Below are positions 48,124 to 63,223 of a stretch of 64,000 nt of DNA, in pieces. Below the pieces are notes generated by a model. The model was given only the letters and a program-made list of their open reading frames with translations. It searched no databases and was not told the DNA's origin. Source of the DNA: Nitrospirota bacterium (lineage in GTDB: Bacteria > Nitrospirota > UBA9217); assembly GCA_035623825.1 (NCBI GenBank), contig DASPSR010000020.1, forward strand, positions 32,001 to 96,000. Reading direction: 5' to 3'. The number at the start of each line of letters is the position of its first letter. Position 1 is the stretch's first letter. The position numbers were made by a program, and so were the translations under genes.

Positions 48124-48966
48124 ATGGCATATCATGAGTTCACCATCCGGATACCAAACTTATTCAGAGACGCGCTTGTACAAATGCTTACATCAAAAAG
48201 CTGTCTCGGGGTTATCGAGCATGACAACGAGGTCATTGCCTATTTTCCGGAAACCATTGATAGCAATACCACATCAAGGGATCTCACCATTTTGAAGGAG
48301 CTTTTGAAAAAAACGCACCGAAATCTCGAACTGACCTTTGACCACAGCATCATCCCAGATCAGGACTGGAACGAATCCTGGAAAAAGGGCTTCACTTCTC
48401 TCGATGTCGGGAAACTGTTCACCATCCTCCCTCCCTGGGAGGGGGAAAAAAGCGGCCGCATAAATTTGATTATCGACCCCGGCATGGCTTTCGGCACCGG
48501 ACACCATGAGACCACGCGTTCGTGCCTTGTGCTCATGGGAAAATATGCGATAAAAAGCTCAAAAGACCGGTTTCTCGACCTGGGCACCGGCACGGGTCTC
48601 CTCGCTATCGCAGCCTCGAGGCTCGGCTACAGACAGGTAGTCGCACTCGACATCGATCCCCTTGCCGTGGAGGCGGCAGTTAAGAATGTCTCACTGAACC
48701 GCATCGAAAATGTGCTGATCAAGACAGGAAGCATAACAGATGTAGAAGGATCGTTCGACTGCATTGCTGCGAACATCATCTCCAGCGTGTTGACCTTTCT
48801 GGCTCCCGAAATCTCTTCCCGTTTGAACCCCTCCGGCGTAACCATTCTTTCCGGCATCCTTGCCGAACAGGCGGATGAAGTCGTCAAGGCATACGAGCTG
48901 ACAGGCCTGATGTTCATCGAGAATTTCCCTGATGACAAGTGGGTCTCTCTCGTATTCCGTAAATAG
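48124..48966 (+). CDS. prmA: Ribosomal protein L11 methyltransferase
   Basis: DWNESWK, IDPGMAFGTGHHETT, LDLGTGTG, ANI, LSGIL. Confidence 0.95.
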   Translation: MAYHEFTIRIPNLFRDALVQMLTSKSCLGVIEHDNEVIAYFPETIDSNTTSRDLTILKELLKKTHRNLELTFDHSIIPDQDWNESWKKGFTSLDVGKLFTILPPWEGEKSGRINLIIDPGMAFGTGHHETTRSCLVLMGKYAIKSSKDRFLDLGTGTGLLAIAASRLGYRQVVALDIDPLAVEAAVKNVSLNRIENVLIKTGSITDVEGSFDCIAANIISSVLTFLAPEISSRLNPSGVTILSGILAEQADEVVKAYELTGLMFIENFPDDKWVSLVFRK

Positions 48967-49025
48967 GCAATTTCTCCTATATCGGTAATGCTGATTTCAT
49001 GTAGAAAGGAACGTGCGTCTGCGGG

Positions 49026-50606
49026 TCATTCAGTGATAGGGCTAAACCATGCCTTCGTCGGTCCCTGCACGTAATGACAGTTGAACGAACAATAGGTCGG
49101 ATAATCGTTCAGCACGGTGGTCGTATATGCAGTGATTACCATCTCTCCGATGAGATCATTACCGAGCGTCAGGGTGTTGCTGTAGGCAAGCTCATCATAG
49201 ACCGCGCCGTACGGAGTATTCGAACCGTGGACATCATGGCAGTTGACGCACGTGATCCCCGACCCCACAGCCGTCCCCCGGAACGAAGTAGGCGCGCCGA
49301 GATGGAACCAATGAAGATTGGAATCTTGCACCCATACACCATAATCGTTCAAAGGACTCCCGCTGTAAGGTAGGCCGGGATCCGGAACATTGTGGTCTGC
49401 AAAATGCGTGACCACCCCGGATGTATAATAAGGCGGGTTATATCCATTCGGCCCCCACAAGAAGCCGTAACCTGAATCCAGGATTCCTCCGAACTTGACG
49501 CCAAGGGTGTCTTCCTTCGTGAAGCCTGGATAGCCGGCATGGCAATTAAAGCAGAGCGTGAAGTCAGATTCATAGTACGTGGCCGTATTCTGGGAATAAA
49601 CGAAGTTCTGCGTGGCCAGTATTTGACTGGTCGAACCATGGGCGTTGATGGCTCCGCTGTTGCCATGACAACCGGTTCCGGCAGCACCAGTCCCGAGACA
49701 GGTCAGCTTCAATCCCGATACATGGTTGCCGTTTGGGCCATGGCCATGGGATTTTGCCCAGCTGCTCGCAATCCTGGTGGCATAGGAATACGGGGGTGTG
49801 CCCAGTGCCGACCCGTCATCGAACGGGCTTGTGGGTGTCCCTCCGGAAACGAACGTAGCTGTAGCCCCGTTCTCGTCATGGCAGCTGAGGCAGAAAGGCT
49901 CAAGTCCGGCGACATTGGAAGGATCATAGGCGATGCTCGTACCTGCATTGTCGGCATTCCGCAGCCACACGGTGCCCGCTGTATGGTGTGACTGATCGTG
50001 ACAGACCTCGCACTGCGTGCCGGCCGGATCGCCGCTGGTTGTGACATGATGGGACACGATCGAAGCATTGCTTCCAAAATCCCCCTCTGGACCTGTGATA
50101 ATGCGCCGCGGGCCCAGGACGTACGAGTGGCATCCGCTGCAAAACTGGAAATTCACAGTCTCGGTCCCGTACCAGTCGAGCGTGTCCGTTCCATGGCAGT
50201 TGAGGTCTGTGCACGACCCGGTGTGAGGCCCGGTTTCGTTTATCCATCTGCCGTTCGGGTTCGTCGAATCGAAATAAACAATTAGAACGGCGGGATTGCC
50301 TGTATCAAGAACCCCGTTCATGTGGGTTGGCTTAGTATAATATCCAAAGTGACATTTCTGGCAGGCAAGGCCTATAACTTGGACATGAGCGACATGCTTT
50401 CCAAATGTGCCTGTTCCATTCGTCACCAAAGGATCTGGTGATGCCGTGCTCGTCGAATTATGACAGACTGCGGTACAGTCTGTTATCGGAGGCCCTGGAG
50501 TCACCTGCTTTGTTGATATGGCATCAGGCCCCGGACTGTAACTGCATCCGTAAGCGAGGAGGGCTATCGAAATCAAACCGATTATATGCAAAAAAAACGT
50601 TTTCAT
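49026..50606 (-). CDS. Multiheme c-type cytochrome lipoprotein (6 CxxCH plus 4 atypical motifs; CxxxxCH...CxxCH domain)
   Basis: Lipobox-like LLAYGC; CQKCH, CSGCH, CEVCH, CLSCH, CFNCH, CVNCH; plus CTAVCH, CTDLNCH, CLGTGAAGTGCH, CSFNCH. Confidence 0.88.
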   Translation of the reverse strand: MKTFFLHIIGLISIALLAYGCSYSPGPDAISTKQVTPGPPITDCTAVCHNSTSTASPDPLVTNGTGTFGKHVAHVQVIGLACQKCHFGYYTKPTHMNGVLDTGNPAVLIVYFDSTNPNGRWINETGPHTGSCTDLNCHGTDTLDWYGTETVNFQFCSGCHSYVLGPRRIITGPEGDFGSNASIVSHHVTTSGDPAGTQCEVCHDQSHHTAGTVWLRNADNAGTSIAYDPSNVAGLEPFCLSCHDENGATATFVSGGTPTSPFDDGSALGTPPYSYATRIASSWAKSHGHGPNGNHVSGLKLTCLGTGAAGTGCHGNSGAINAHGSTSQILATQNFVYSQNTATYYESDFTLCFNCHAGYPGFTKEDTLGVKFGGILDSGYGFLWGPNGYNPPYYTSGVVTHFADHNVPDPGLPYSGSPLNDYGVWVQDSNLHWFHLGAPTSFRGTAVGSGITCVNCHDVHGSNTPYGAVYDELAYSNTLTLGNDLIGEMVITAYTTTVLNDYPTYCSFNCHYVQGPTKAWFSPITE

Positions 50607-50622
50607 CAAAACCGCTGCCCCA

Positions 50623-51225
50623 TTATTGTTTATGGCACAACCCGCAGTTCAAGGCCGGACTTACCGGATGCGGTGCTGACGTATGCCGCGCGACTTTGTG
50701 GCATACGACGCAGTTGTCAGCCGGTGCGAAACTGCCGCTGTAATGACACCATGTGCAATGCCGTTTGAGCCAGTTCCCGACATGGGTCCGCGGCTTGGTC
50801 TCGTTGTGGCATCTAACGCAAAAGTCCTGCTTATGACATGTCATGCAGCGCTCGCGGTTGCCTTCCGCCATGAACCCGTGGCTCAACGTGCGCCAGGTGT
50901 TCGTATGGTCGCGAGGCTTCCTCGTGTTATGACAGGTAATGCAATCATTCCACTTGTGACAGGTGAGACAGGATTTCCCGCTCTGGCCCGCCTCATTGAA
51001 GTTCATATTGGCCGATGCGCCATGAAACTCGATCCAGTTCCCCTTGTGCGAATCCGGCCTGGGGAACGGAATTTTGCCCCCGCCAGTTCCCGACACGCCA
51101 GACTGCACCGCTGGTGCGTAGCCGCCGTCTTCCGCTTGCACGTTCGCGCTGCTGCCCATCAGGCACGCCGCGGTGAGCACAATGCAGATGACGAACATTG
51201 TCATGACACGGACATTAAAAATCAT
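50623..51225 (-). CDS. Periplasmic heptaheme cytochrome c
   Basis: Signal peptide ending NVQA; CLTCH, CITCH, CMTCH, CVRCH, CTWCH, CVVCH, CGLCH; start is 51225 or 51204. Confidence 0.88.
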   Translation of the reverse strand: MIFNVRVMTMFVICIVLTAACLMGSSANVQAEDGGYAPAVQSGVSGTGGGKIPFPRPDSHKGNWIEFHGASANMNFNEAGQSGKSCLTCHKWNDCITCHNTRKPRDHTNTWRTLSHGFMAEGNRERCMTCHKQDFCVRCHNETKPRTHVGNWLKRHCTWCHYSGSFAPADNCVVCHKVARHTSAPHPVSPALNCGLCHKQ

Positions 51226-52630
51226 AGCGCATCCCCAGTTTAAGCGTCTGATAGTTCTCGATGCCGGACTCATACTCATAGCCGCCGTTTATCGAAATTC
51301 TCTTGCTGAGCGGATATCTTCCGTTTATATAATACGTACGCACGTTTTCTCTGAGTCCTTCTTCAACGTAATAATCGTACTTGTAGAGGCTGTAGTAGGT
51401 CCCGGCGTTTATACTGGCGCTCTTTTTGTTTTTGAAGGTATATCCGATATCAAGCCCCGCAGAGTAGTAGTGCGTTCCCGTGGTTTCCCACCGTTCGCCG
51501 GTAAGGGTGAACGCAAAGTCTTTCGGCAAATCGATGAGTTCGAACACCAGAAAGGCCCGGCTGTAATCCTTGTCGAACGCGCTCTCCTCGTTCTCTTCCA
51601 GAAGGCCCCGTTTGAAGTAGCCGACGTCCACCGCATAATGCAGACCGAAGAGCTTTCGGAGTTTCACATCAATGCTCTGGTAGGGAGCCGACTGTCCGAG
51701 GACCGCATAGTACAGTGAGAGCTCGTTCGAGAGTTCGTTCTGGGTGGAGAATTGACGGAAGTAGTTAACGTACATTTCGGTGTCCGCTTCGGGAAAGGAG
51801 CTTATGGCCTTCACACTCAGGTCCCGCGGATCGTCGTTGAGATAACGGTACTTGACTGAGGCCTTCAAGAACGTTCCGAAGCTCTGCCAGAGCTTGAGGG
51901 AGATCATCCGGTCGTGCAAATCGACCGGGGTAGACGATGTAGGGGGTGATTGTTCATCCTCGACGAACAGATAATCCAAGCTGAACCTGGTGCTCGTGCC
52001 GAGAGCATAATCGAGGCCGGCACCAGCCAAGGTGTCATCGCCCCAGTGATAGCCAATCTCATAGAGATGGACGGCGACACCGCCGTAAAGCGTCACATTG
52101 AGCGGGGAAGATGGCTTGATGTCGGCTGCGATACCGTCAAAAAAGACCTGCTCGTCCCTCGTACCCGTCTGCCTCCCCATCCGTATCTGCGTGAAATACG
52201 GAAAGGGATTATTGATATCGAGATGCGCCTCGTAAAGGTATGCGTGGTATGAAGCCTGGTAGGTATCACCGATGTCTTTCAGGGGATTAAAAAACGTCTG
52301 GTTATTGAGACCGCTAAAATCATTTCTCGCGGTCCCGAAGAAATGAAATTCGTAACGGTTCTCCTTCGGCATGGTGGCATCAAGCCGCAGTTCCCCGTAA
52401 GCGTCCTGATCCCTCCACGTCGTATCGGAATAAGCGGCCGTTCGGTACTCGTATCTGCCGGCAAGATACCCGCTAATATTGAAAAGATTATCCGATGATT
52501 GTTCAGATCCGGACACGTCTACGGACGTCGTATACGCAAACAGATGAAAGGGGGAAAGAACGAACAACGAAAAGAGAAGTAAGAGGACTGAGAGAAGTAT
52601 GCGGCGAAATAGTATATTTTTATTCTTCAA
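51215..52630 (-). CDS. Putative outer-membrane beta-barrel (porin of a porin-cytochrome module)
   Basis: Signal peptide, Tyr/Phe-rich alternating strands, RMGRQ...FDG motif, C-terminal LGMRYDF barrel signature. Confidence 0.8.
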   Translation of the reverse strand: MKNKNILFRRILLSVLLLLFSLFVLSPFHLFAYTTSVDVSGSEQSSDNLFNISGYLAGRYEYRTAAYSDTTWRDQDAYGELRLDATMPKENRYEFHFFGTARNDFSGLNNQTFFNPLKDIGDTYQASYHAYLYEAHLDINNPFPYFTQIRMGRQTGTRDEQVFFDGIAADIKPSSPLNVTLYGGVAVHLYEIGYHWGDDTLAGAGLDYALGTSTRFSLDYLFVEDEQSPPTSSTPVDLHDRMISLKLWQSFGTFLKASVKYRYLNDDPRDLSVKAISSFPEADTEMYVNYFRQFSTQNELSNELSLYYAVLGQSAPYQSIDVKLRKLFGLHYAVDVGYFKRGLLEENEESAFDKDYSRAFLVFELIDLPKDFAFTLTGERWETTGTHYYSAGLDIGYTFKNKKSASINAGTYYSLYKYDYYVEEGLRENVRTYYINGRYPLSKRISINGGYEYESGIENYQTLKLGMRYDF

Positions 52631-52680
52631 ATATATATTCCCCCGTTGCTCCTGAACTACAATAGATAATAATCGATAAA

Positions 52681-52709
52681 ATCATAATCTTGATCAGTGC
52701 TCCTGTCAA
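52681..52709 (-). promoter_or_regulatory. sigma70-type promoter of the porin-cytochrome operon
   Basis: TTGACA-17 bp-TATGAT. Confidence 0.65.
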
Positions 52710-52859
52710 GTGAATTTTCCTGATGTTCCTGGTATGATCTCATGGTATTCCAAATGTTAAACAGTCTTGATTTTGCGTTCGAAGAATGCTATGGTATTTA
52801 TGCATGCTCAGAAACTTATTCCTATCTTCGTCCCCTGGCTAAAAGGAGAAAAAATCTCC

Positions 52860-53612
52860 GTGAGGATAAAACCAGTTTTATCGATTACGCTTCTTTCCCT
52901 GTTCTGCATGTACTCCCAGGCCTCATCGGCGGAGATCGACTGCCTCCAGTGCCACGAGGAGCTTACCAAAGGGAAAAGCGTTCACGCGGCCGTTTCCATG
53001 GGTTGCACCGCCTGCCACACCGCCGTAGATGCAACAGACATCCCGCATAAGATGACATCTAAGATCCCGAAAGGGCTTTCCGCCGAACAGCCCGACCTGT
53101 GCTACGGATGCCATGACAAATCTCTGTTTAACAAAAAATTCGTGCACCCCGCTATAGGCATGGGTTGCACCAGCTGCCACAACCCTCATGCAAGCAAATA
53201 CGCAAAGCTCCTGATCTCAGATCTCCCGGACCTGTGTTATGGCTGCCACGACAAGGGAATTTTCACGAAGAAGAACGTTCACCCTCCGGTTGCCGCAGGA
53301 CAATGCTTGTTCTGCCACGACCCCCACTCCTCGGACTTAGCTTTCCGGCTTGAAAAGCCTATTGACGTACTCTGCGAGACCTGCCATGCCGGCAAGTCTT
53401 CGGGAAAACACATCCTTGCAGGATACGGTCTCGGCGATCGTCACCCGACGAAAGGCGTACCCGACCCCTCGCATCCCGGAAAAGAGCTCTCCTGCACAAG
53501 TTGTCACAGCGTTATTCATTCCTCGAATGGGAAGTTCCTGTTCCCGGACGAAGCTGTTCGCTCCGGCAATATGTGCCTGCTGTGCCACATAAAGATCAGT
53601 GTCCGTCCATGA
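52860..53612 (+). CDS. Periplasmic nonaheme cytochrome c (paired CxxCH/DmsE-like repeats)
   Basis: 9 CxxCH motifs with repeated HP...CxxCHxPH.S...LCxxCH units; AGGAG before GTG 52860; signal peptide ending ASSA. Confidence 0.88.
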   Translation: MRIKPVLSITLLSLFCMYSQASSAEIDCLQCHEELTKGKSVHAAVSMGCTACHTAVDATDIPHKMTSKIPKGLSAEQPDLCYGCHDKSLFNKKFVHPAIGMGCTSCHNPHASKYAKLLISDLPDLCYGCHDKGIFTKKNVHPPVAAGQCLFCHDPHSSDLAFRLEKPIDVLCETCHAGKSSGKHILAGYGLGDRHPTKGVPDPSHPGKELSCTSCHSVIHSSNGKFLFPDEAVRSGNMCLLCHIKISVRP

Positions 53613-53692
53613 AAGACGTTTCCGTTAGGAAGCGGTTTACAGCATTCTTGTGTCGAAATGTGCAGAATTCAACAATGATCGGACGGACGCTC

Positions 53693-54601
53693 ATGCGAAT
53701 CCATCCCGCTATCGTTTTGCTCCTCTCCGTTTTATCTTTTCCCTCGCTCTCGTTTGCTACGCCGGACTACGCCCGGCAGACGGGATTTGAGTGCAAGCAC
53801 TGCCATATAGACGCCATCGGTGGCGGTCCGCTCACCCAGGCCGGGAAAATGTTTCTTGATGATATGAAGGTCAAAGGACTCTATCGGCCCCTGACCCCTG
53901 CGCAGCGGTACGTGCGCCTGATAATCGGATACCTGCACCTCGTGACGGCGATCGTCTGGTTCGGAACGATCATGTATGTCCATGTCCTCCTGAAGCCCGC
54001 TTACGCTTCTAAAGGCCTTCCAAAGGGCGAACTCAGGCTCGGCTGGCTTTCCATGATCATGATCCTCATATCGGGCGCGCTGCTGACAGTATCCCGGATC
54101 CCCGCTTGGAACGTCTTCGTCACCACCCGCTTTGGCATCCTGTTGAGCATAAAAATATTTCTGTTCCTTATCATGCTCGCCAGCGCGTTAGTTGTGACCA
54201 TCTATATCGGCCCAAAATTAAAGAAACAGAAGGGCCTTGCCGCTTCTCTTGAGCCCGGCGACTGTACCCTTGACGGCCTTGCCCCGTTCGATGGTAAGGA
54301 CGGCAGGCCCTCATACATTGCCTATAAGGGTATCATCTACGATGTGACGAGAAGCAGGTTTTGGAAGAACGGATCGCACGTTATGAAGCATGCGGCGGGA
54401 AACGATCTGACTGATTTCCTCAAGAACGCGCCTCATGGTGAAGACAGGATCCTTACCATGCCGCAGGTGGGCAAGCTCCTGGCATCTGAGGCAAAACCAC
54501 GTCGACCATTCCATGAACGGCTCTTCTACTTCTTTGCATATATGAACCTCGTTCTCGTGTTCGTCATCACGTTCATCATCGCACTCTGGAGATGGTGGTA
54601 A
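53693..54601 (+). CDS. Membrane protein: N-terminal single CxxCH domain, CopD-like TM bundle and cytochrome b5-like domain
   Basis: Signal peptide, then TPDYARQTGFECKHCH; YLHLVTAIVWFG; FDGKDGRPSYIAYKGIIYDVT...WKNGSH...HAAGNDLT...PHG; start inferred. Confidence 0.8.
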   Translation: MRIHPAIVLLLSVLSFPSLSFATPDYARQTGFECKHCHIDAIGGGPLTQAGKMFLDDMKVKGLYRPLTPAQRYVRLIIGYLHLVTAIVWFGTIMYVHVLLKPAYASKGLPKGELRLGWLSMIMILISGALLTVSRIPAWNVFVTTRFGILLSIKIFLFLIMLASALVVTIYIGPKLKKQKGLAASLEPGDCTLDGLAPFDGKDGRPSYIAYKGIIYDVTRSRFWKNGSHVMKHAAGNDLTDFLKNAPHGEDRILTMPQVGKLLASEAKPRRPFHERLFYFFAYMNLVLVFVITFIIALWRWW

Positions 54602-55335: not shown

Positions 55336-55401
55336 CAGAAAATTGCGTTTTGGATTATGCTTTTCCCGTTACTGGCAAAAATCCAAACCAAGGAGGTGCG
55401 T

Positions 55402-56085
55402 ATGGGAAATAAAGCAGCGAGGAATCTCTTTATCATTGGCAGTCTCTTCTTCTTCGTGGTCTTCCTTGCCCTCACAGTCGACACACTGGGGAAACTCGAC
55501 AAACGGGCACCGGAAATCACGCAAGCAGTTGACGACGGCAAAATGGTATGGCACAAGTACGATTGCATCGGATGCCATACCATTCTCGGGAACGGGACCT
55601 ATTTCGCTCCCGACCTGACCAAGGTAGCTGCTCGTAAGCCGAAAAGCTACCTTAAGCAGTTCATCATGGACCCCAAAGGAGTAAAGGGAGACGCGGTGAT
55701 GCCCACTCTTGGGATCAGCTCCACCGAAGCTGACAACCTTCTGGCTTTTCTCGACTGGATGTCCAAGGTCGACACGAACGGTTGGCCTCCCAAACCGATA
55801 CTTGCAACGGCCGCTGGCGTCGGGGGAAAAGAGCTGACTGCCGGACAACTGGTGTACCAGGCGCAGGGCTGCTCCAACTGCCATTCCATCAGCGGCATCG
55901 GCGGGACCTCTGGACCGGACCTGACGAAGGTAGGGAGCAGGCGCGATCGTGACTGGTTAATCGGCCATTTCAAGGACCCGCAGAAATATGTGAAGAATTC
56001 CGCGATGCCGCCGGTCACTGCCTCTAATGAGGAGATCGACCAACTCACAGCATACATGCTTACACTCAAGGAGGCGACAAAATGA
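55402..56085 (+). CDS. norC: Nitric oxide reductase cytochrome c subunit, diheme
   Basis: ARNLFIIGSLFFFVVFLALT anchor, CIGCHTILG.G.YFAPDLTK, second domain CSNCH...GPDL...MP; AAGGAGGT SD. Confidence 0.9.
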   Translation: MGNKAARNLFIIGSLFFFVVFLALTVDTLGKLDKRAPEITQAVDDGKMVWHKYDCIGCHTILGNGTYFAPDLTKVAARKPKSYLKQFIMDPKGVKGDAVMPTLGISSTEADNLLAFLDWMSKVDTNGWPPKPILATAAGVGGKELTAGQLVYQAQGCSNCHSISGIGGTSGPDLTKVGSRRDRDWLIGHFKDPQKYVKNSAMPPVTASNEEIDQLTAYMLTLKEATK

Positions 56086-57473
56086 CAATGAAATATAAAA
56101 GTCAAAGGATCGCGCAGTACTTTTACACCTTCGCGATCCTGCTGTTCCTCGTGCAGGTGCTCGTCGGCCTTATCGGCGCCCTCGAGTTCATATGGCCGAA
56201 CTTCTTCTTCCTGAAGTTTCACATCATCAAGACGCTCCATGTGAATGCGCTCGTGATCTGGCTCCTCGCCGGTCTCATGGGGGCGACCTACTATGTGGTT
56301 CCCGAGGAATCGGAAACGGAACTCTGGAGCTATCCTCTTGCCTTGTTTCAGTTCTGGGCAACGGTCGTTACCGTGACCTTGGTGGTGATCGGCTATATAT
56401 GGATGGGTTTCGACCCCCAGGCGAATAAGACGGTGTTCGGCACTCTGATACTGAACGAAGGCCGCGAGTATATCGAGGCCCCGCGCTGGGCGGACATTCT
56501 CATCGTGGTCTCGGTGCTTCTGTTCCTGTTCAACAACTTCATGACCATGTTCAAAACCAAGAAATGGACCGGAATTCAGGGCACGCTCCTGGGCGGCCTC
56601 GTGTTTTTGGCACTCATGTATCTGCCGGGCATGGTCTATACCAAGAGCATGGTCAAGGACCAGTTCTGGTGGTGGTGGGTGGTCCATCTCTGGGTAGAGG
56701 GCGCATGGGAGGTCATCGCGGGCGCCTTGCTCGCATTCATGCTGATGAAGGTGATCGGCGCGAAGCGTGAAGTGCTTGAAAAATGGATGTACATTGAGGT
56801 GGGCCTCGTAATGTTCACGGGTCTTTTAGGCACCGGCCATCACTATTACTGGATCGGAACGCCGGGATACTGGCTCTGGGTCGGCGGAATCTTCAGTTCC
56901 CTGGAACCCCTTCCCTTGCTCCTAATGGTCTGGGATGCGTTCAGGACGACTAGGGAGGCGCGGCAGGTCACGAACCGTGCCGGACTGTACTATACCGTGG
57001 CGCACGCGATCTTCAATTTCGTGGGCGCGGGCCTCTGGGGTGTGATCCACACCCTCCCACAGGTGAATAAGTGGACGCACGGCACGCAGATCACCGCGGC
57101 ACACGGCCACCTCGCGTTCTACGGGGCCTATGTGCTTCTGGTGATGTCCATGATCTATGTGACCCTTCCGGCGATCCGGGGAGTGAAAGAGTACGATCCG
57201 GGAAGAGCCTTTGCGTCTTTCTGGTGGATGACGATCTCAATGATATTCATGGTGTTCGTGCTCACCGGGGCAGGAATGGTGCAGGTCTACATGGAGCGGC
57301 TCATGGGGCTCGACTATGAGGCCGTGAAGGCGAATTACAATCTCTGGTTCTGGGTCTTCCGTGCGGTCTTCGGCGCCGGGTTCCTTGTGGGCGTCGCCAT
57401 CTTCGTCGTCGACTACTTCAAGCTCGGCGGGGAAGCGGCCCCTGCGCTTCAGACGGCAACGGACCGCGGTTGA
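56082..57473 (+). CDS. norB: Nitric oxide reductase catalytic subunit (cNOR)
   Basis: GREYIE, WWVVHLWVEGAWE, GTGHHYYW, SSLEP, HGHLAFYG; ATGA overlap with norC. Confidence 0.95.
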   Translation: MTMKYKSQRIAQYFYTFAILLFLVQVLVGLIGALEFIWPNFFFLKFHIIKTLHVNALVIWLLAGLMGATYYVVPEESETELWSYPLALFQFWATVVTVTLVVIGYIWMGFDPQANKTVFGTLILNEGREYIEAPRWADILIVVSVLLFLFNNFMTMFKTKKWTGIQGTLLGGLVFLALMYLPGMVYTKSMVKDQFWWWWVVHLWVEGAWEVIAGALLAFMLMKVIGAKREVLEKWMYIEVGLVMFTGLLGTGHHYYWIGTPGYWLWVGGIFSSLEPLPLLLMVWDAFRTTREARQVTNRAGLYYTVAHAIFNFVGAGLWGVIHTLPQVNKWTHGTQITAAHGHLAFYGAYVLLVMSMIYVTLPAIRGVKEYDPGRAFASFWWMTISMIFMVFVLTGAGMVQVYMERLMGLDYEAVKANYNLWFWVFRAVFGAGFLVGVAIFVVDYFKLGGEAAPALQTATDRG

Positions 57474-60157: not shown

Positions 60158-60769
60158 ATGTCTAGTGAATGCTGTGGTATTCGGGTCGGCCAGACGGTGC
60201 CGGATTTCAAGCTTGAGACCTATGATCCCTCGAAGGGCGATTTCAGCGAGATCAGCCTCGCCGCGCAGAAAGCGGCAAAAAAATGGACGGTTCTTTTCTT
60301 CTACCCTGCCGATTTCACTTTTGTTTGAGCGACGGAATTTGCTGCTCTGGCGGAGCAGTATGAAGCATTCAAAAAAGCCGGTGCCGAGGTGATTACTGTA
60401 AGCACCGATACCAAATTCGTCCACCTCGCATGGCAACGTGACGAGAAAATGCTCGAAAAAGTCAAATATCCCATGGGCTCTGATACTACCGGCAAACTGT
60501 CGCGATCATTCGGCGTCTATGATGAGGAGACAGGTCTTGCGCTGAGAGGGACGTTCATCATAAACCCTGATGGTGTTCTGCGCAACTCAGAAGTTAATTA
60601 TTACAATCTCGGCAGGAACATCGAAGAAATGTTGCGGAAGGTCAACGCGAACATTCACCTCGCAGCAAACCCCGTTGAAGCTTGCCCAGCCCAGTGGAAG
60701 AAGGAAGGTGACAAGACACTGAAACCCTCCGCTAAAATGGTCGGCAAGGTGTATGAGGCGTTGAAGTAA
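60158..60769 (+). CDS. prxU: Selenocysteine-containing AhpC/Prx1 peroxiredoxin (UGA at 60326-60328 read as Sec57)
   Basis: AAGGAGG then ATG 60158; reads ...FFYPADFTFV-TGA-ATEF... and continues in frame into ORF 60389-60769 (LRGTFIINPDG, GRN, ACPAQW); TGA sits at the peroxidatic Cys position. Confidence 0.92.
60340..60360 (+). promoter_or_regulatory. Candidate bacterial SECIS hairpin
   Basis: TGCTGCTC-TGGCG-GAGCAGTA 8-bp stem (one G-U pair) starting after an 11-nt spacer from the UGA. Confidence 0.7.
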
Positions 60770-61226: not shown

Positions 61227-62627
61227 ATGAGCGATTATCAATACGATAATCAGACGGTAAAAGGTTTTATCGTCTCCTCGATCTTCTGGGGAGTTGTCGG
61301 GATCGTGATCGGGCTCTGGATCTCGGTACAGATGTGGATGCCGTCGCTGAACTTCCCGCCCTATTTTACCTTCGGACGGCTCAGAGTGGTGCATACGAAC
61401 GGGCTCGCCTTCGGGCTCGGGATCGGCGCGATATTCGGGATTTCCTACTATATCATAATGCGGCTCACGAAGCGACCTCTCCTCTTCCCGAAACTCGCAC
61501 GGTTCCACCTCTGGTTCTTCAACGTCGCCATCCTGCTCGCGGCGCTCAGCCTCCTTGCAGGCATGAACCAGTCGAATGAATACGCAGAGCTGGAATGGCC
61601 GCTTGACATCGCCGTCGTCATCCTCTGGGTCATCTTTGCCGTCAACGTCTTCGGCACGATCATCAAGCGAAAAGAAGAGCAAATGTACATTTCTCTGTGG
61701 TATATCCTCGCGACGACTGTCGCCGTCGCCGTTCTGTATATCGTGAACAATCTCTCGATCCCCGCGGGCTGGAATAAATCCTACCATCTCTTTGCGGGCG
61801 TCAACAGCGCCAATGTAGAGTGGTGGTACGGACACAATGCGGTAGGATTCATTTTTACGACGCCGATTCTCGCAATGTTCTATTATTTCCTGCCGAAGTC
61901 CACGGGCCTGCCGATTTACAGCCACCGCCTTTCCATCATAGCTTTCTGGTCGCTCGTGTTTGCCTATCTCTGGACAGGAGCGCACCACTTGGTCTATACG
62001 CCTCTGCCCGACTGGATCCAAACCCTCGGGATCGCCTTTACCATCTTCCTGATCGCTCCGTCCTGGGGCTCGGTAGTGAACGGTTACTATACGGTCGGTA
62101 ATGACTGGTCGAAGATGCAGACGAACTACCTTACCAAGTTCTTCATCCTCGGTATCACCTTCTATGGCCTGCAAACGGTCCAGGGTCCGACACAGGGACT
62201 GCGTGTCGTCAGCCAGTTGATCCACTTCACCGACTGGGTCCCCGGCCATGTGCACATGGGCACCATGGGATGGGTGACCATGACCGCTGCCGCATCGATG
62301 TACTACATCATCCCGAAGATCTACAACACGTCGATCTACAGCGAGAAGATCGCGAACATCCATTTCTGGCTCGTGCTGATCGGGCAGCTCATATTCTCGA
62401 TCACCATGTGGATCACGGGGATCATGCAGGGTGCCCTCTGGAAAGCGACGAACCCCGATGGAAGCCTTAAGTATACGTTCGTAGAGGTAGTAGCGAAGAA
62501 CTATCCATTCTGGAAAATGAGAACGCTCGGGGGCGTGATCTTCACGGTCGGCATGCTCTTTTTTATCTACAATATCTATATGACCATGCGCAAAGGCAAG
62601 CTTGAGCTTGCCGAAGCGAAGGCATAG
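61227..62627 (+). CDS. ccoN: cbb3-type cytochrome c oxidase subunit I
   Basis: FGRLRVVHTN, EYAELEW, WWYGHNAVGF, YLWTGAHHL, GHVHMG. Confidence 0.96.
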   Translation: MSDYQYDNQTVKGFIVSSIFWGVVGIVIGLWISVQMWMPSLNFPPYFTFGRLRVVHTNGLAFGLGIGAIFGISYYIIMRLTKRPLLFPKLARFHLWFFNVAILLAALSLLAGMNQSNEYAELEWPLDIAVVILWVIFAVNVFGTIIKRKEEQMYISLWYILATTVAVAVLYIVNNLSIPAGWNKSYHLFAGVNSANVEWWYGHNAVGFIFTTPILAMFYYFLPKSTGLPIYSHRLSIIAFWSLVFAYLWTGAHHLVYTPLPDWIQTLGIAFTIFLIAPSWGSVVNGYYTVGNDWSKMQTNYLTKFFILGITFYGLQTVQGPTQGLRVVSQLIHFTDWVPGHVHMGTMGWVTMTAAASMYYIIPKIYNTSIYSEKIANIHFWLVLIGQLIFSITMWITGIMQGALWKATNPDGSLKYTFVEVVAKNYPFWKMRTLGGVIFTVGMLFFIYNIYMTMRKGKLELAEAKA

Positions 62628-62638
62628 GGGGTGATAAC

Positions 62639-63223
62639 ATGGCAGATGCTCTCTATAAGAAACCGATATTGTTCGCTATCGTCGCGGCAGTCGTCATCCT
62701 GATCGGGACCGCTGTGACCATGTTCATTCCGATGCTGACGCCGGAAATGCATCCGAAACTGGCGAACCTCAAGCCCTACACAGCGCTCCAGCTCGCCGGC
62801 AAGGACATCTACCAGCGGGAAGGCTGCAATAACTGCCACACCCAGACGGTGCGACCTCTGAAGACCGAGGTCATGCGGTATGGCGAATACTCGAAAGCGG
62901 GGGAATTCGCCTACGACCGGCCTTTCCTCTGGGGTTCAAAGCGCACCGGTCCCGACCTGGCACGCATCGGCGGGAAATATCCCGATCAGTGGCACGAGAT
63001 ACACTTCGATAATCCGCAGGCCATGTACGCGGAGTCCAACATGCCCGCCTACGGTTGGTTGAAGCAAAACAAGCTCGATCCATCGGACATCGAAGCCCAC
63101 ATGAAGGCAAATGATTTCCCGTACACGCGCGATGAACTCGCACAGCTCAAGGACAAGACTGAGCTTGATGCGCTGATCGCGTACCTCCAGGTAATCGGCA
63201 CGGCAGTCACCAAGGCGAAATGA
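62639..63223 (+). CDS. ccoO: cbb3-type cytochrome c oxidase subunit II
   Basis: YQREGCNNCHTQTVRP, WGSKRTGPDLAR, SNMPAY. Confidence 0.96.
   Translation: MADALYKKPILFAIVAAVVILIGTAVTMFIPMLTPEMHPKLANLKPYTALQLAGKDIYQREGCNNCHTQTVRPLKTEVMRYGEYSKAGEFAYDRPFLWGSKRTGPDLARIGGKYPDQWHEIHFDNPQAMYAESNMPAYGWLKQNKLDPSDIEAHMKANDFPYTRDELAQLKDKTELDALIAYLQVIGTAVTKAK

Follow-up and report, generated by a model that had tools for sequence, protein, structure and literature searches.

The window, the 64,000-nucleotide stretch of Nitrospirota DNA that was analysed, holds on its minus strand three closely spaced genes for a barrel protein and two multihaem cytochromes and, divergent from them on the plus strand, a further multihaem cytochrome gene followed by genes for a membrane protein, a dihaem cytochrome and an oxidase-like enzyme. 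The features, by position in the window, are as follows.

51215–52630, minus strand: gene for the barrel ('porin') protein, 471 aa (ORF list, AlphaFold2 model, fold searches)
50623–51225, minus strand: gene for a periplasmic heptahaem cytochrome c, 200 aa (haem motifs, alignment of relatives)
49026–50606, minus strand: gene for a lipoprotein multihaem cytochrome, 526 aa from the ATG at 50606 (haem motifs, lipobox)
52681–52709, minus strand: sigma-70-like promoter TTGACA-17 nt-TATGAT (consensus match only)
52767–53612, plus strand: gene for a divergent periplasmic nonahaem cytochrome of the paired-CXXCH type (Pfam Paired_CXXCH_1, 131 bits)
53609–54601, plus strand: membrane protein that combines an N-terminal CXXCH domain with CopD-like helices and a cytochrome b5-like domain (context gene)
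55357–56085, plus strand: dihaem cytochrome c gene (Pfam FixO and NorB-cytochrome-c-like pieces; context gene)
56082–57473, plus strand: divergent haem-copper oxidase/NO-reductase-like subunit I (Pfam COX1, 222 bits; context gene)

The minus-strand frames were first called at 51215–52630, 50623–51279 and 49026–50609. The ATG at 51225 is the heptahaem start common to the aligned relatives, so the protein is taken to be 200 and not 218 aa long, and with this start its gene overlaps the end of the barrel gene, up to the TAA, by 11 nt (ATGATTTTTAA); a gap of 13 nt separates the heptahaem TAA from the lipoprotein ATG. Together with the conservation of the loci described below, this spacing upholds the three-gene operon that the earlier note had read here. 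The near-consensus promoter placed in front of it agrees with the sigma-70 consensus at 11 of 12 positions (52709–52681) and is the best of eight promoter-like sites between 48800 and 53000, although such sites are not enriched in that interval (8 versus 4.4 ± 2.1 in shuffles). The three proteins amount to about 1,200 residues with 17 haem motifs. Comparison with relatives indicates that the divergent nonahaem gene likely starts at the GTG at 52860.

Export signals were read from the sequences: a signal peptide to about residue 32 of the barrel protein, another in the heptahaem, and in the lipoprotein the lipobox LLAYGC, whose Cys21 is invariant in 22/22 relatives. The description of the first product as a secreted, beta-barrel-like protein ending in YDF (the C-terminus reads ...GMRYDF) is confirmed as an outer-membrane barrel, because the AlphaFold2 model (pLDDT 79.9, pTM 0.71, about 22 strands) and two fold searches agree. 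Foldseek matches the model to outer-membrane barrels at E 1e-10, and VIA-align ranks TonB-receptor barrels of 22 strands highest, their plugs excluded, with Cir first (Z 18.1, 362 residues, rmsd 4.2). The solved MtrB barrel, which has 26 strands as against about 22 here, also matches, with Z 14.5 (VIA-align). The barrel protein carries no CXXCH and has no match at E ≤ 0.01 in Pfam, MtrB_PioB (PF11854) included, nor any in NCBIfam, and sequence searches of the PDB with all three proteins or with the barrel profile returned nothing below E 0.5. It belongs to a large family of barrels that has no Pfam or NCBIfam model, comprising 905 clusters at 50% identity without annotation. In two cluster look-ups of 20 matches to the barrel profile, the only annotation was 'hypothetical protein', the organisms, where named, being Brocadiales, Ca. 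Wunengus, Planctomycetota/Planctomycetes and one Deltaproteobacteria bacterium; the Brocadiales proteins are members of the same family, and a word-indexed search with distant barrels as queries gave only six proteins, none of them belonging to a named isolate. The profile could annotate several hundred clusters now labelled hypothetical.

The middle protein carries seven CXXCH motifs in a mature chain of about 169 aa, or about 24 aa per haem, and the seven-haem description given earlier stands: all seven motifs are invariant in 19/19 aligned relatives, as are eight further histidines. No curated family model in Pfam or NCBIfam (0 NCBIfam families) matches it, the MtrA/DmsE family (TIGR03508) included. 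It aligns to residues 215–339 of a 342-residue SAR324 cytochrome with 49% identity, to residues 175–303 of a 341-residue Planctomycetia 14-haem cytochrome with 39% identity, and to residues 170–288 of a third, 12-haem cytochrome of 301 residues. In these three comparisons the heptahaem corresponds to the C-terminal half of the 12–14-haem partner cytochromes, with their N-terminal five to seven haems absent, and the match suggests which stretch of the longer cytochromes may lie inside the barrel. Seven haems are fewer than in every characterised barrel-inserted cytochrome, with eight in OmaB and ten in MtrA (as given in PMC4245776), a point that weighs against the predicted spanning of the barrel by the heptahaem. 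A predicted complex of the barrel (residues 33–471) and the heptahaem (32–200), both with alignments, scored 0.24 against a mark of 0.32, the fold of the heptahaem being itself uncertain, and so speaks neither for nor against insertion.

The lipoprotein was credited earlier with up to ten haem motifs, a count that is reached with six CXXCH, two CX3CH, one CX4CH and one CX9CH. Across 22 relatives all ten are unchanged or almost so, and one of these relatives has a plain CXXCH at the CX9CH position; haem binding at the CX3CH, CX4CH and CX9CH sites is assumed. Pfam gives weak matches to c7 and c3_2, and the MtrC/MtrF II–IV domain (PF22113) matches residues 132–250 with 28.0 bits, below its cut-off of 30. 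The AlphaFold2 model of the lipoprotein, built with 22 sequences, has a pLDDT of 36.6, too low for use in a fold search. The four atypical sites could include a catalytic haem, and a rival reading, in place of a wire to solids, is an outer-membrane-associated redox enzyme whose substrate is soluble or colloidal (polysulfide, selenite/tellurite or a nitrogen oxide, for example), with the barrel as substrate channel and the lipoprotein as catalyst. Sulfur metabolism in the host would suit such an enzyme, as would the Geobacter ExtI porin, which is reported to take up selenite (reference 58, as cited in PMC13510729). Against this, none of the three proteins has a catalytic domain or belongs to a known enzyme family in Pfam or NCBIfam, and the barrel is in every case partnered by a multihaem cytochrome with densely packed haems; the heptahaem's figure of about 24 residues per haem is typical of wires and not of enzymes. 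We regard the enzyme as improbable.

The genes are conserved together, as the earlier reading of them as a unit would have it. Among 39 related loci of other genomes, the gene immediately after the barrel encodes a heptahaem relative in 37, the other two being cut at contig ends, while the lipoprotein cytochrome is present in 25 and a relative of the nonahaem stands beside the barrel in 23; an arrangement conserved in this way does not arise by chance. All-against-all clustering of 40 loci left only the barrel, heptahaem, lipoprotein and nonahaem families in 20 or more. The clustering reveals no inner-membrane quinol dehydrogenase that is kept next to the conduit genes, a point against the conduit, and no inner-membrane protein family is common to more than 5/40 loci. 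In loci from another phylum the barrel adjoins a cytochrome with seven or more haem motifs in 14/14 cases; over both sets of loci the pairing spans at least five phyla, and more distant members of the barrel family pair with 11–14-haem cytochromes. The nonahaem scores 91.7 bits with the DmsE-family model, below the cut-off of 192. The same counts bear on a further alternative, a plain diffusion porin or exporter that happens to have cytochrome genes as neighbours. Its fold searches also returned AlgE, Occ porins and usher barrels, and its nearest ESM Atlas clusters carry the automatic names alginate export and PEP-CTERM, which are leads only; the pairing with a multihaem cytochrome across these phyla, and the overlap of the barrel stop with the heptahaem start codon, leave that reading close to refuted.

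The closest counterparts by architecture are the porin-cytochrome (Pcc) clusters. Those described by Shi et al. 2014 (PMC4245776) were recruited by BLAST (E < 0.01) to OmbB/OmbC, OmaB/OmaC and OmcB/OmcC, and are given there as a porin-like barrel of 18–22 strands, a periplasmic cytochrome of 5–14 haems and an outer cytochrome with atypical CX3-15CH motifs. Every one of these architectural traits is found here, with about 22 strands and an adjacent cytochrome, seven CXXCH, and a lipoprotein with atypical motifs, and the gene order of barrel, periplasmic cytochrome and lipoprotein cytochrome is that of OmbB-OmaB-OmcB and OmbC-OmaC-OmcC. Since no curated model matches the barrel or the heptahaem, it is shared architecture, together with unnamed or MAG relatives, that supports the likely link to the Geobacter proteins. 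The Geobacter clusters differ in having eight periplasmic and twelve outer haems, as against seven and ten here, and a TetR-type orfR/orfS regulator, none of which was seen at this locus, where a conserved divergent nonahaem stands instead. For Anaeromyxobacter spp. and Candidatus Kuenenia, PMC4245776 lists two-gene Pcc clusters that join a barrel to a 12–14-haem cytochrome of 338–344 aa; unlike them, the present cluster lacks the N-terminal five to seven haems and has an added lipoprotein cytochrome. One Planctomycetia MAG locus (L029) encodes a barrel that shares 33% identity with the present one (tblastn 1e-47), followed by a 341-aa cytochrome with 14 CXXCH and, by size and haem count only, may be the published Kuenenia cluster.

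MtrCAB, MtoAB and PioAB work on the same principle and share the structural match to the MtrB barrel, but differ in gene order and, in MtrA, by ten haems to our seven. The view that these proteins are not MtrA, MtrB or MtrC is borne out for the first two, which the MtrB_PioB and DmsE/MtrA models fail to recognise here, and probably holds for MtrC; in sequence, none of the three proteins resembles a chain of solved structure. The OetABI/ExtEFG-type conduits of syntrophic sulfate reducers, for which inward flow is proposed in PMC10553843, have the same three parts (barrel, periplasmic cytochrome, lipoprotein cytochrome) in sulfate-reducing hosts, a likeness drawn from their description only; in the Desulfobacterales relatives of our barrel (L030, L032, L033) the lipoprotein gene lies upstream.

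Cyc2, in which one haem c domain is joined to a barrel of 16 strands, was rejected as a counterpart, the barrel protein here having about 22 strands and no CXXCH. PCC3 and PCC4 likewise combine a barrel with multihaem cytochromes. They were proposed from genomes only, in iron oxidisers. In PCC3, as described by He et al. 2017 (PMC5566968), the barrel has as many as 42 strands, the median haem counts of the cytochromes are 34 and 21, and a five-helix inner-membrane protein is conserved, while PCC4 is without an extracellular cytochrome. Both were rejected, given about 22 strands, seven and ten haems, and no widely shared inner-membrane protein at our loci. Within the Nitrospirota, the Manganitrophus PCCs are porin-dodecahaem complexes (PMC9040806), and an Antarctic Thermodesulfovibrionia paper concerns Cyc2 (PMC13647500). 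Our literature search found no paper describing the Nitrospirota heptahaem cluster, though the supplementary tables of the Manganitrophus and Thermodesulfovibrionia papers may list homologues.

The barrel fold, the operon, the haem motifs and the synteny fit the conduit of porin, periplasmic cytochrome and lipoprotein that the earlier note had proposed, and we conclude, with a probability of about 0.8 for the full explanation including the insertion and surface roles, that together the three genes specify a compact, 17-haem conduit of the Geobacter Pcc kind. The further claim of a distinct wire stands in so far as no Mtr-family model matches above its cut-off, but 'distinct' is too strong: both the barrel and the heptahaem have homologues in the barrel-plus-7-to-14-haem modules of Planctomycetia, SAR324, Desulfobacterales and Myxococcales, and with all the architectural hallmarks of Pcc present the cluster is a variant, a shortened seven-haem form, of a kind already known, so that the surprise for a specialist is moderate. 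In such a conduit the 471-aa protein would be the outer-membrane barrel, with about 22 strands, and the heptahaem, exported to the periplasm, would be placed in the barrel lumen as a haem wire. The ten-haem lipoprotein would take or give electrons at the outer end, on the cell surface, where its partners would be insoluble or of macromolecular size, for instance minerals (Fe(III) or reduced ones), humic substances or other cells, and the divergent nonahaem probably bridges the periplasm between the conduit and the inner membrane. A three-protein conduit so compact is a concrete and experimentally tractable candidate.

The direction of flow is the least certain part of our reading. We see an even chance that electrons pass outward, with an anaerobic host respiring Fe(III) or humics. 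The host carries dsrA, aprA and acetyl-CoA synthase, which are typical of anaerobes, and the characterised Pcc complexes covered in PMC4245776 work in reduction. The same complex may instead serve naturally for uptake: electrons drawn from Fe(II), humics in reduced form, minerals or partner cells outside would pass by way of periplasmic cytochromes to the oxidase/NO-reductase-like enzyme, to the cbb3 oxidase also present in the host or to sulfate reduction, a role that we rate as the less likely of the two. Directly upstream of the conduit stand the nonahaem, a membrane-anchored haem protein, a dihaem cytochrome c and the COX1-family enzyme, and ccoN/ccoO lie 9 kb from the cluster; sulfate reducers partnering with methanotrophs are, moreover, proposed in PMC10553843 to import electrons through such conduits. 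Barrels from bins labelled Acidiferrobacterales and Betaproteobacteria fall within the Nitrospirota barrel clade and would also suit uptake, but these labels may be wrong. The oxidase genes are adjacent only here and in one of the 39 loci (L001), and the CopD/b5 and cupin genes are kept in 4/39, the CopD/b5 protein being confined to close relatives (L001, L002, L003, L006). The rarity of this neighbourhood speaks against uptake, and the anaerobic sulfur-metabolism genes and the neighbouring oxidase genes point opposite ways.

Peat, soils and groundwater commonly harbour uncultured Nitrospirota that carry sulfur-cycling genes, and the cluster is a candidate for the way in which these interact with iron and humics. 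We put forward, as a speculation unlikely to hold in every part, that in this Nitrospirota branch the barrel-inserted cytochrome was reduced to a minimal seven-haem C-terminal module, with periplasmic reach left to the separate nonahaem, and that the resulting 7+10-haem wire would connect dsr/apr-bearing peat Nitrospirota to humics, iron minerals or partner cells, maybe feeding the adjacent haem-copper oxidase or NO reductase. If true, this would amount to an unrecognised lithotrophic route of electron uptake in presumed sulfate reducers.

In the host genome at large, the DsrD profile (PF08679) found no match, and as it found none in the controls either, the result does not tell reductive from oxidative Dsr; the NCBIfam ExtS profile likewise matched neither the host nor the control genomes. 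Two further conduit-like clusters are present. In a second Pcc-like cluster (C48) a 450-aa ORF reaches an hhalign probability of 0.3 with the barrel profile, which shows no relationship. The host is otherwise equipped for a conduit, with 23 ORFs of four or more CXXCH and a separate mtrCAB-like cluster on another contig, whose ORF the MtrB_PioB model detects at 27.7 bits.

The stretch 49026-52709, which an earlier note had read from its sequence as a promoter followed by three genes for a candidate porin-cytochrome conduit, contains three minus-strand ORFs:

51215-52630, minus strand: barrel gene; 471 aa, N-terminal signal peptide, no CXXCH, C-terminus ...GMRYDF
start ATG 51225, minus strand: heptahaem cytochrome gene, second in order; seven CXXCH
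49026-50606/50609, minus strand: lipoprotein cytochrome gene; 526/527 aa, protein start MKTFFLHIIGLISIALLAYGC

The heptahaem ATG (51225) overlaps by 11 nt the barrel TAA, which lies inside ATGATTTTTAA, and because the same ATG is the start of 18 aligned relatives we assign the protein 200 residues, of which some 169 remain after signal-peptide cleavage (about 24 per haem). Only 13 nt separate the heptahaem TAA from the lipoprotein ATG, and these two junctions bear out the proposed operon. The near-consensus promoter is also present as a predicted site, TTGACA-17-TATGAT at 52709-52681 upstream of the barrel gene, which matches the consensus at 11/12 positions and is the top-scoring of the eight promoter-like sites in 48800-53000, a number not enriched over shuffles (4.4 +/- 2.1). 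No intrinsic terminator was found 3' of the lipoprotein gene, which is convergent with prmA.

The AlphaFold2 model of the 471-residue protein, made from an alignment of 44 sequences, has about 22 long strands (mean pLDDT 79.9, pTM 0.71), and its matches in Foldseek are outer-membrane barrels only, namely AlgE, Occ porins and FimD/PapC ushers (TM ~0.5). A structure search independent of Foldseek ranked 22-strand TonB-dependent receptor barrels first (Cir, Z 18.1, 362 residues aligned, r.m.s.d. 4.2, with the plug outside the aligned range) and gave Z 14.5 for the solved MtrB barrel, so that model and both searches agree on the suspected beta-barrel. A lumen as large as the one that takes a plug of ~150 residues in TonB-dependent receptors would be compatible with the 169-residue cytochrome.

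All seven heptahaem CXXCH, arranged in repeats of the form CxxCH-x3-4-CxxCH-x3-PRDH-x3-W, are invariant in 19 aligned proteins, in line with the seven haems first counted, and eight further His are invariant in the same set, which by sequence would be enough for bis-His ligation. The 'up to 10' motifs ascribed to the lipoprotein proved exact, with six CXXCH and four atypical sites (two CX3CH, one CX4CH and one CX9CH); the lipobox Cys and the Cys/His of all ten are invariant or nearly so in 22 aligned lipoproteins. One relative has lost seven residues at the CX9CH site and carries an ordinary CTDCH there, which speaks for haem binding at this odd site. Judged from these alignments, the haem motifs of both cytochromes are real features.

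Scanning species-representative genomes, we obtained 39 barrel loci. The gene immediately downstream of the barrel gene encodes a heptahaem relative in 37 of them; in the two exceptions, L025 and L026, the contig edge falls inside the barrel gene. Relatives of the lipoprotein are present in 25/39 loci by tblastn and, by all-against-all clustering, in 29 of the 40 regions formed by the 39 loci and the window's own, Myxococcales and 'Proteobacteria' loci included, and the three genes are thus conserved together. A divergently transcribed nine-haem cytochrome (nonahaem) of paired-CXXCH type accompanies 23/39 loci. The clustering revealed no other gene family common to more than five of the 40 regions and no conserved inner-membrane component among them. 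The gene prmA adjoins the cluster in the window and also in the Nitrospirota loci L002, L005, L006 and L023, and obg and ribosomal protein genes lie on the same 146-kb contig, which marks the cluster as a long-standing part of the lineage's chromosome. In a quick maximum-likelihood tree of 34 barrels, from which six cut or frameshifted full-length rows were left out (L006, L025, L026, L031, L034 and L035), the window's barrel falls in a clade of 25, starred on the tree, of which 20 are labelled Nitrospirota; Acidiferrobacterales- and Betaproteobacteria-labelled bins and two SAR324 bins are nested within it, and Planctomycetia form its sister group.

Most likely, the conduit works with the heptahaem threaded into the barrel, which is placed in the outer membrane, and with the lipoprotein at the cell surface, an arrangement that would put 17 haems in series. 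The nonahaem, which scores 91.7 bits against the DmsE-family model (cut-off 192), would bridge the periplasm.

No Pfam or NCBIfam model matches the barrel or the heptahaem at E <= 0.01, bar a sub-threshold c7 match, and the lipoprotein has generic cytochrome matches only, plus MtrC/MtrF domain II/IV below threshold (28 bits, cut-off 30). The three proteins and the barrel profile had no sequence match among solved chains, a library that includes the Mtr complex, since this turned up in the structure search. As the Pfam MtrB_PioB model does function in this genome, where it finds a separate 652-aa ORF on another contig, we place the cluster outside Mtr/Mto/Pio (Shewanella-type conduits), and the view that these are not MtrA/B/C orthologs stands for the barrel and the heptahaem and probably also for the lipoprotein. 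That ORF lies in a second conduit of the genome, in mtrC-mtrA-mtrB order; a third, Pcc-like trio (Pcc, Geobacter-type porin-cytochrome conduit) lies on a further contig:

C22:46897-51855 (L040 2898-7856, minus strand): lipoprotein, 644 aa, 10 CXXCH, MtrC/MtrF II-IV domain 2.8e-14; cytochrome, 341 aa, 9 CXXCH; ORF, 652 aa, MtrB_PioB 27.7 bits (cut-off 23)
C48:60913-63802 (L041 2414-5303, minus strand): ORF of 450 aa, no Pfam family; pentahaem, 149 aa; lipoprotein, 370 aa, 7 CXXCH + 2 CX3-4CH

By hhalign the 450-aa ORF could not be related to the barrel family of the window (probability 0.3). Two neighbouring giant cytochromes at C53:3009-6271 in the same genome (658 and 436 aa, with 26 and 16 CXXCH) are related to the nonahaem via repeated paired-CXXCH units.

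Cyc2 was rejected since the barrel has no haem motif. PCC3 and PCC4 of He et al. 2017 (PMC5566968) were set aside because their barrels and cytochromes are far bigger, an inner-membrane protein is conserved or an extracellular cytochrome is lacking. According to Shi et al. 2014 (PMC4245776), Geobacter-type Pcc barrels have 18-22 strands, the periplasmic cytochromes carry 5-14 haems and the outer cytochromes often have CX3-15CH motifs; as working criterion that paper uses BLAST similarity to OmbB, OmaB and OmcB. The window's cluster shares all three structural traits and is likened to these systems by architecture. The same paper describes two-gene clusters in Anaeromyxobacter and Ca. Kuenenia with cytochromes of 338-344 residues and 12-14 haems, and a cytochrome of just this type, with 341 residues and 14 motifs, is encoded at L029, a Planctomycetia MAG locus. 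The proposal of a distinct wire therefore holds with regard to Mtr/Mto/Pio but not as a new kind of system: this kind of conduit is already known and the window's cluster is a branch of it. In searches of the literature, supplements aside, we found no publication describing the seven-haem Nitrospirota branch; this branch, centred on Nitrospirota, is characterised by the seven-haem insert, the ten-haem lipoprotein with its four atypical sites, and the divergent nonahaem.

An exhaustive search with a profile built from 31 barrels matched 905 cluster representatives at E <= 0.001 (735 at <= 1e-10, 486 at <= 1e-30). Every name recovered for 20 of the matches and their cluster members was 'hypothetical protein', and the organisms named were Candidatus Brocadiales, Ca. 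Wunengus, Planctomycetota/Planctomycetes and one Deltaproteobacteria bacterium; closer relatives, from word-indexed searches, were also unnamed or from Nitrospirota. Many family members (P0341, P0347, P0367 and P0325 among the profile matches) are 500-770 aa long, with N-terminal extensions of 100-350 residues before the barrel. More distant relatives retain the pairing, with larger cytochromes: the partner has 12 haems in SAR324, 12-14 haems in Planctomycetia, and 11 in bins of Myxococcales and 'Proteobacteria'. In Desulfobacterales it has 7, and there the lipoprotein gene lies upstream. In the phylum of locus L030, 45 of 401 sampled genomes had a match, and at all 14 loci fetched the barrel adjoins, or was called together with, a cytochrome of at least seven haem motifs, mostly 10-12. 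Three of the long partner cytochromes align with the heptahaem over their C-terminal halves (residues 215-339 of 342, 49% identity; 175-303 of 341, 39%; 170-288 of 301, 32%), and for this reason the Nitrospirota protein looks like their C-terminal module alone.

Signs of an anaerobic host in the genome, a 67-contig bin (89.65% complete, 0.7% contaminated), are dsrA (570 bits), aprA (918 bits) and CdhC, a subunit of acetyl-CoA synthase (216 bits), each scoring above its cut-off. Directly adjoining the conduit, at 55357-57473 (plus strand), are a dihaem cytochrome gene with FixO-like and NorB-cytochrome-like pieces and, following it, a haem-copper oxidase subunit I of divergent sequence (222 bits to COX1 versus 23 to ccoN), which may be an O2 or NO reductase of an unusual type; this neighbourhood is common to L001 only among the 39 loci. 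The ccoN/ccoO pair at 61227-63223 is more typical (ccoN 525 bits, cut-off 583 and so below it; FixO 241 bits). Near-identical DNA occurs in peat-metagenome runs, with at least half of the sampled words in 7 of the 10 runs listed, three of which are possibly the source of the window's DNA and all of which date from 2018, possibly from one campaign. Fe(III) and humic substances are plausible partners in peat, and we rate outward electron transfer slightly above uptake.

Two further genes of the window deserve mention:

53609-54601, plus strand: unusual membrane protein; signal peptide, one CXXCH domain, CopD-like helices (PF05425, 36.7 bits), cytochrome b5-like domain (30.2 bits)
60158-60769, plus strand: peroxiredoxin gene; in-frame TGA in place of the peroxidatic cysteine codon

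The ATG of the former overlaps the nonahaem TGA (ATGA), and among the loci only L001, L002, L003 and L006 retain the gene and with it a small cupin. The latter, which adjoins an Rrf2 regulator and ccoNO, gives under table 11 only the C-terminal 126 aa (AhpC-TSA profile positions 63-123); with TGA read as U it gives 203 aa (...FTFVUATE...), and it probably encodes a selenocysteine peroxiredoxin.
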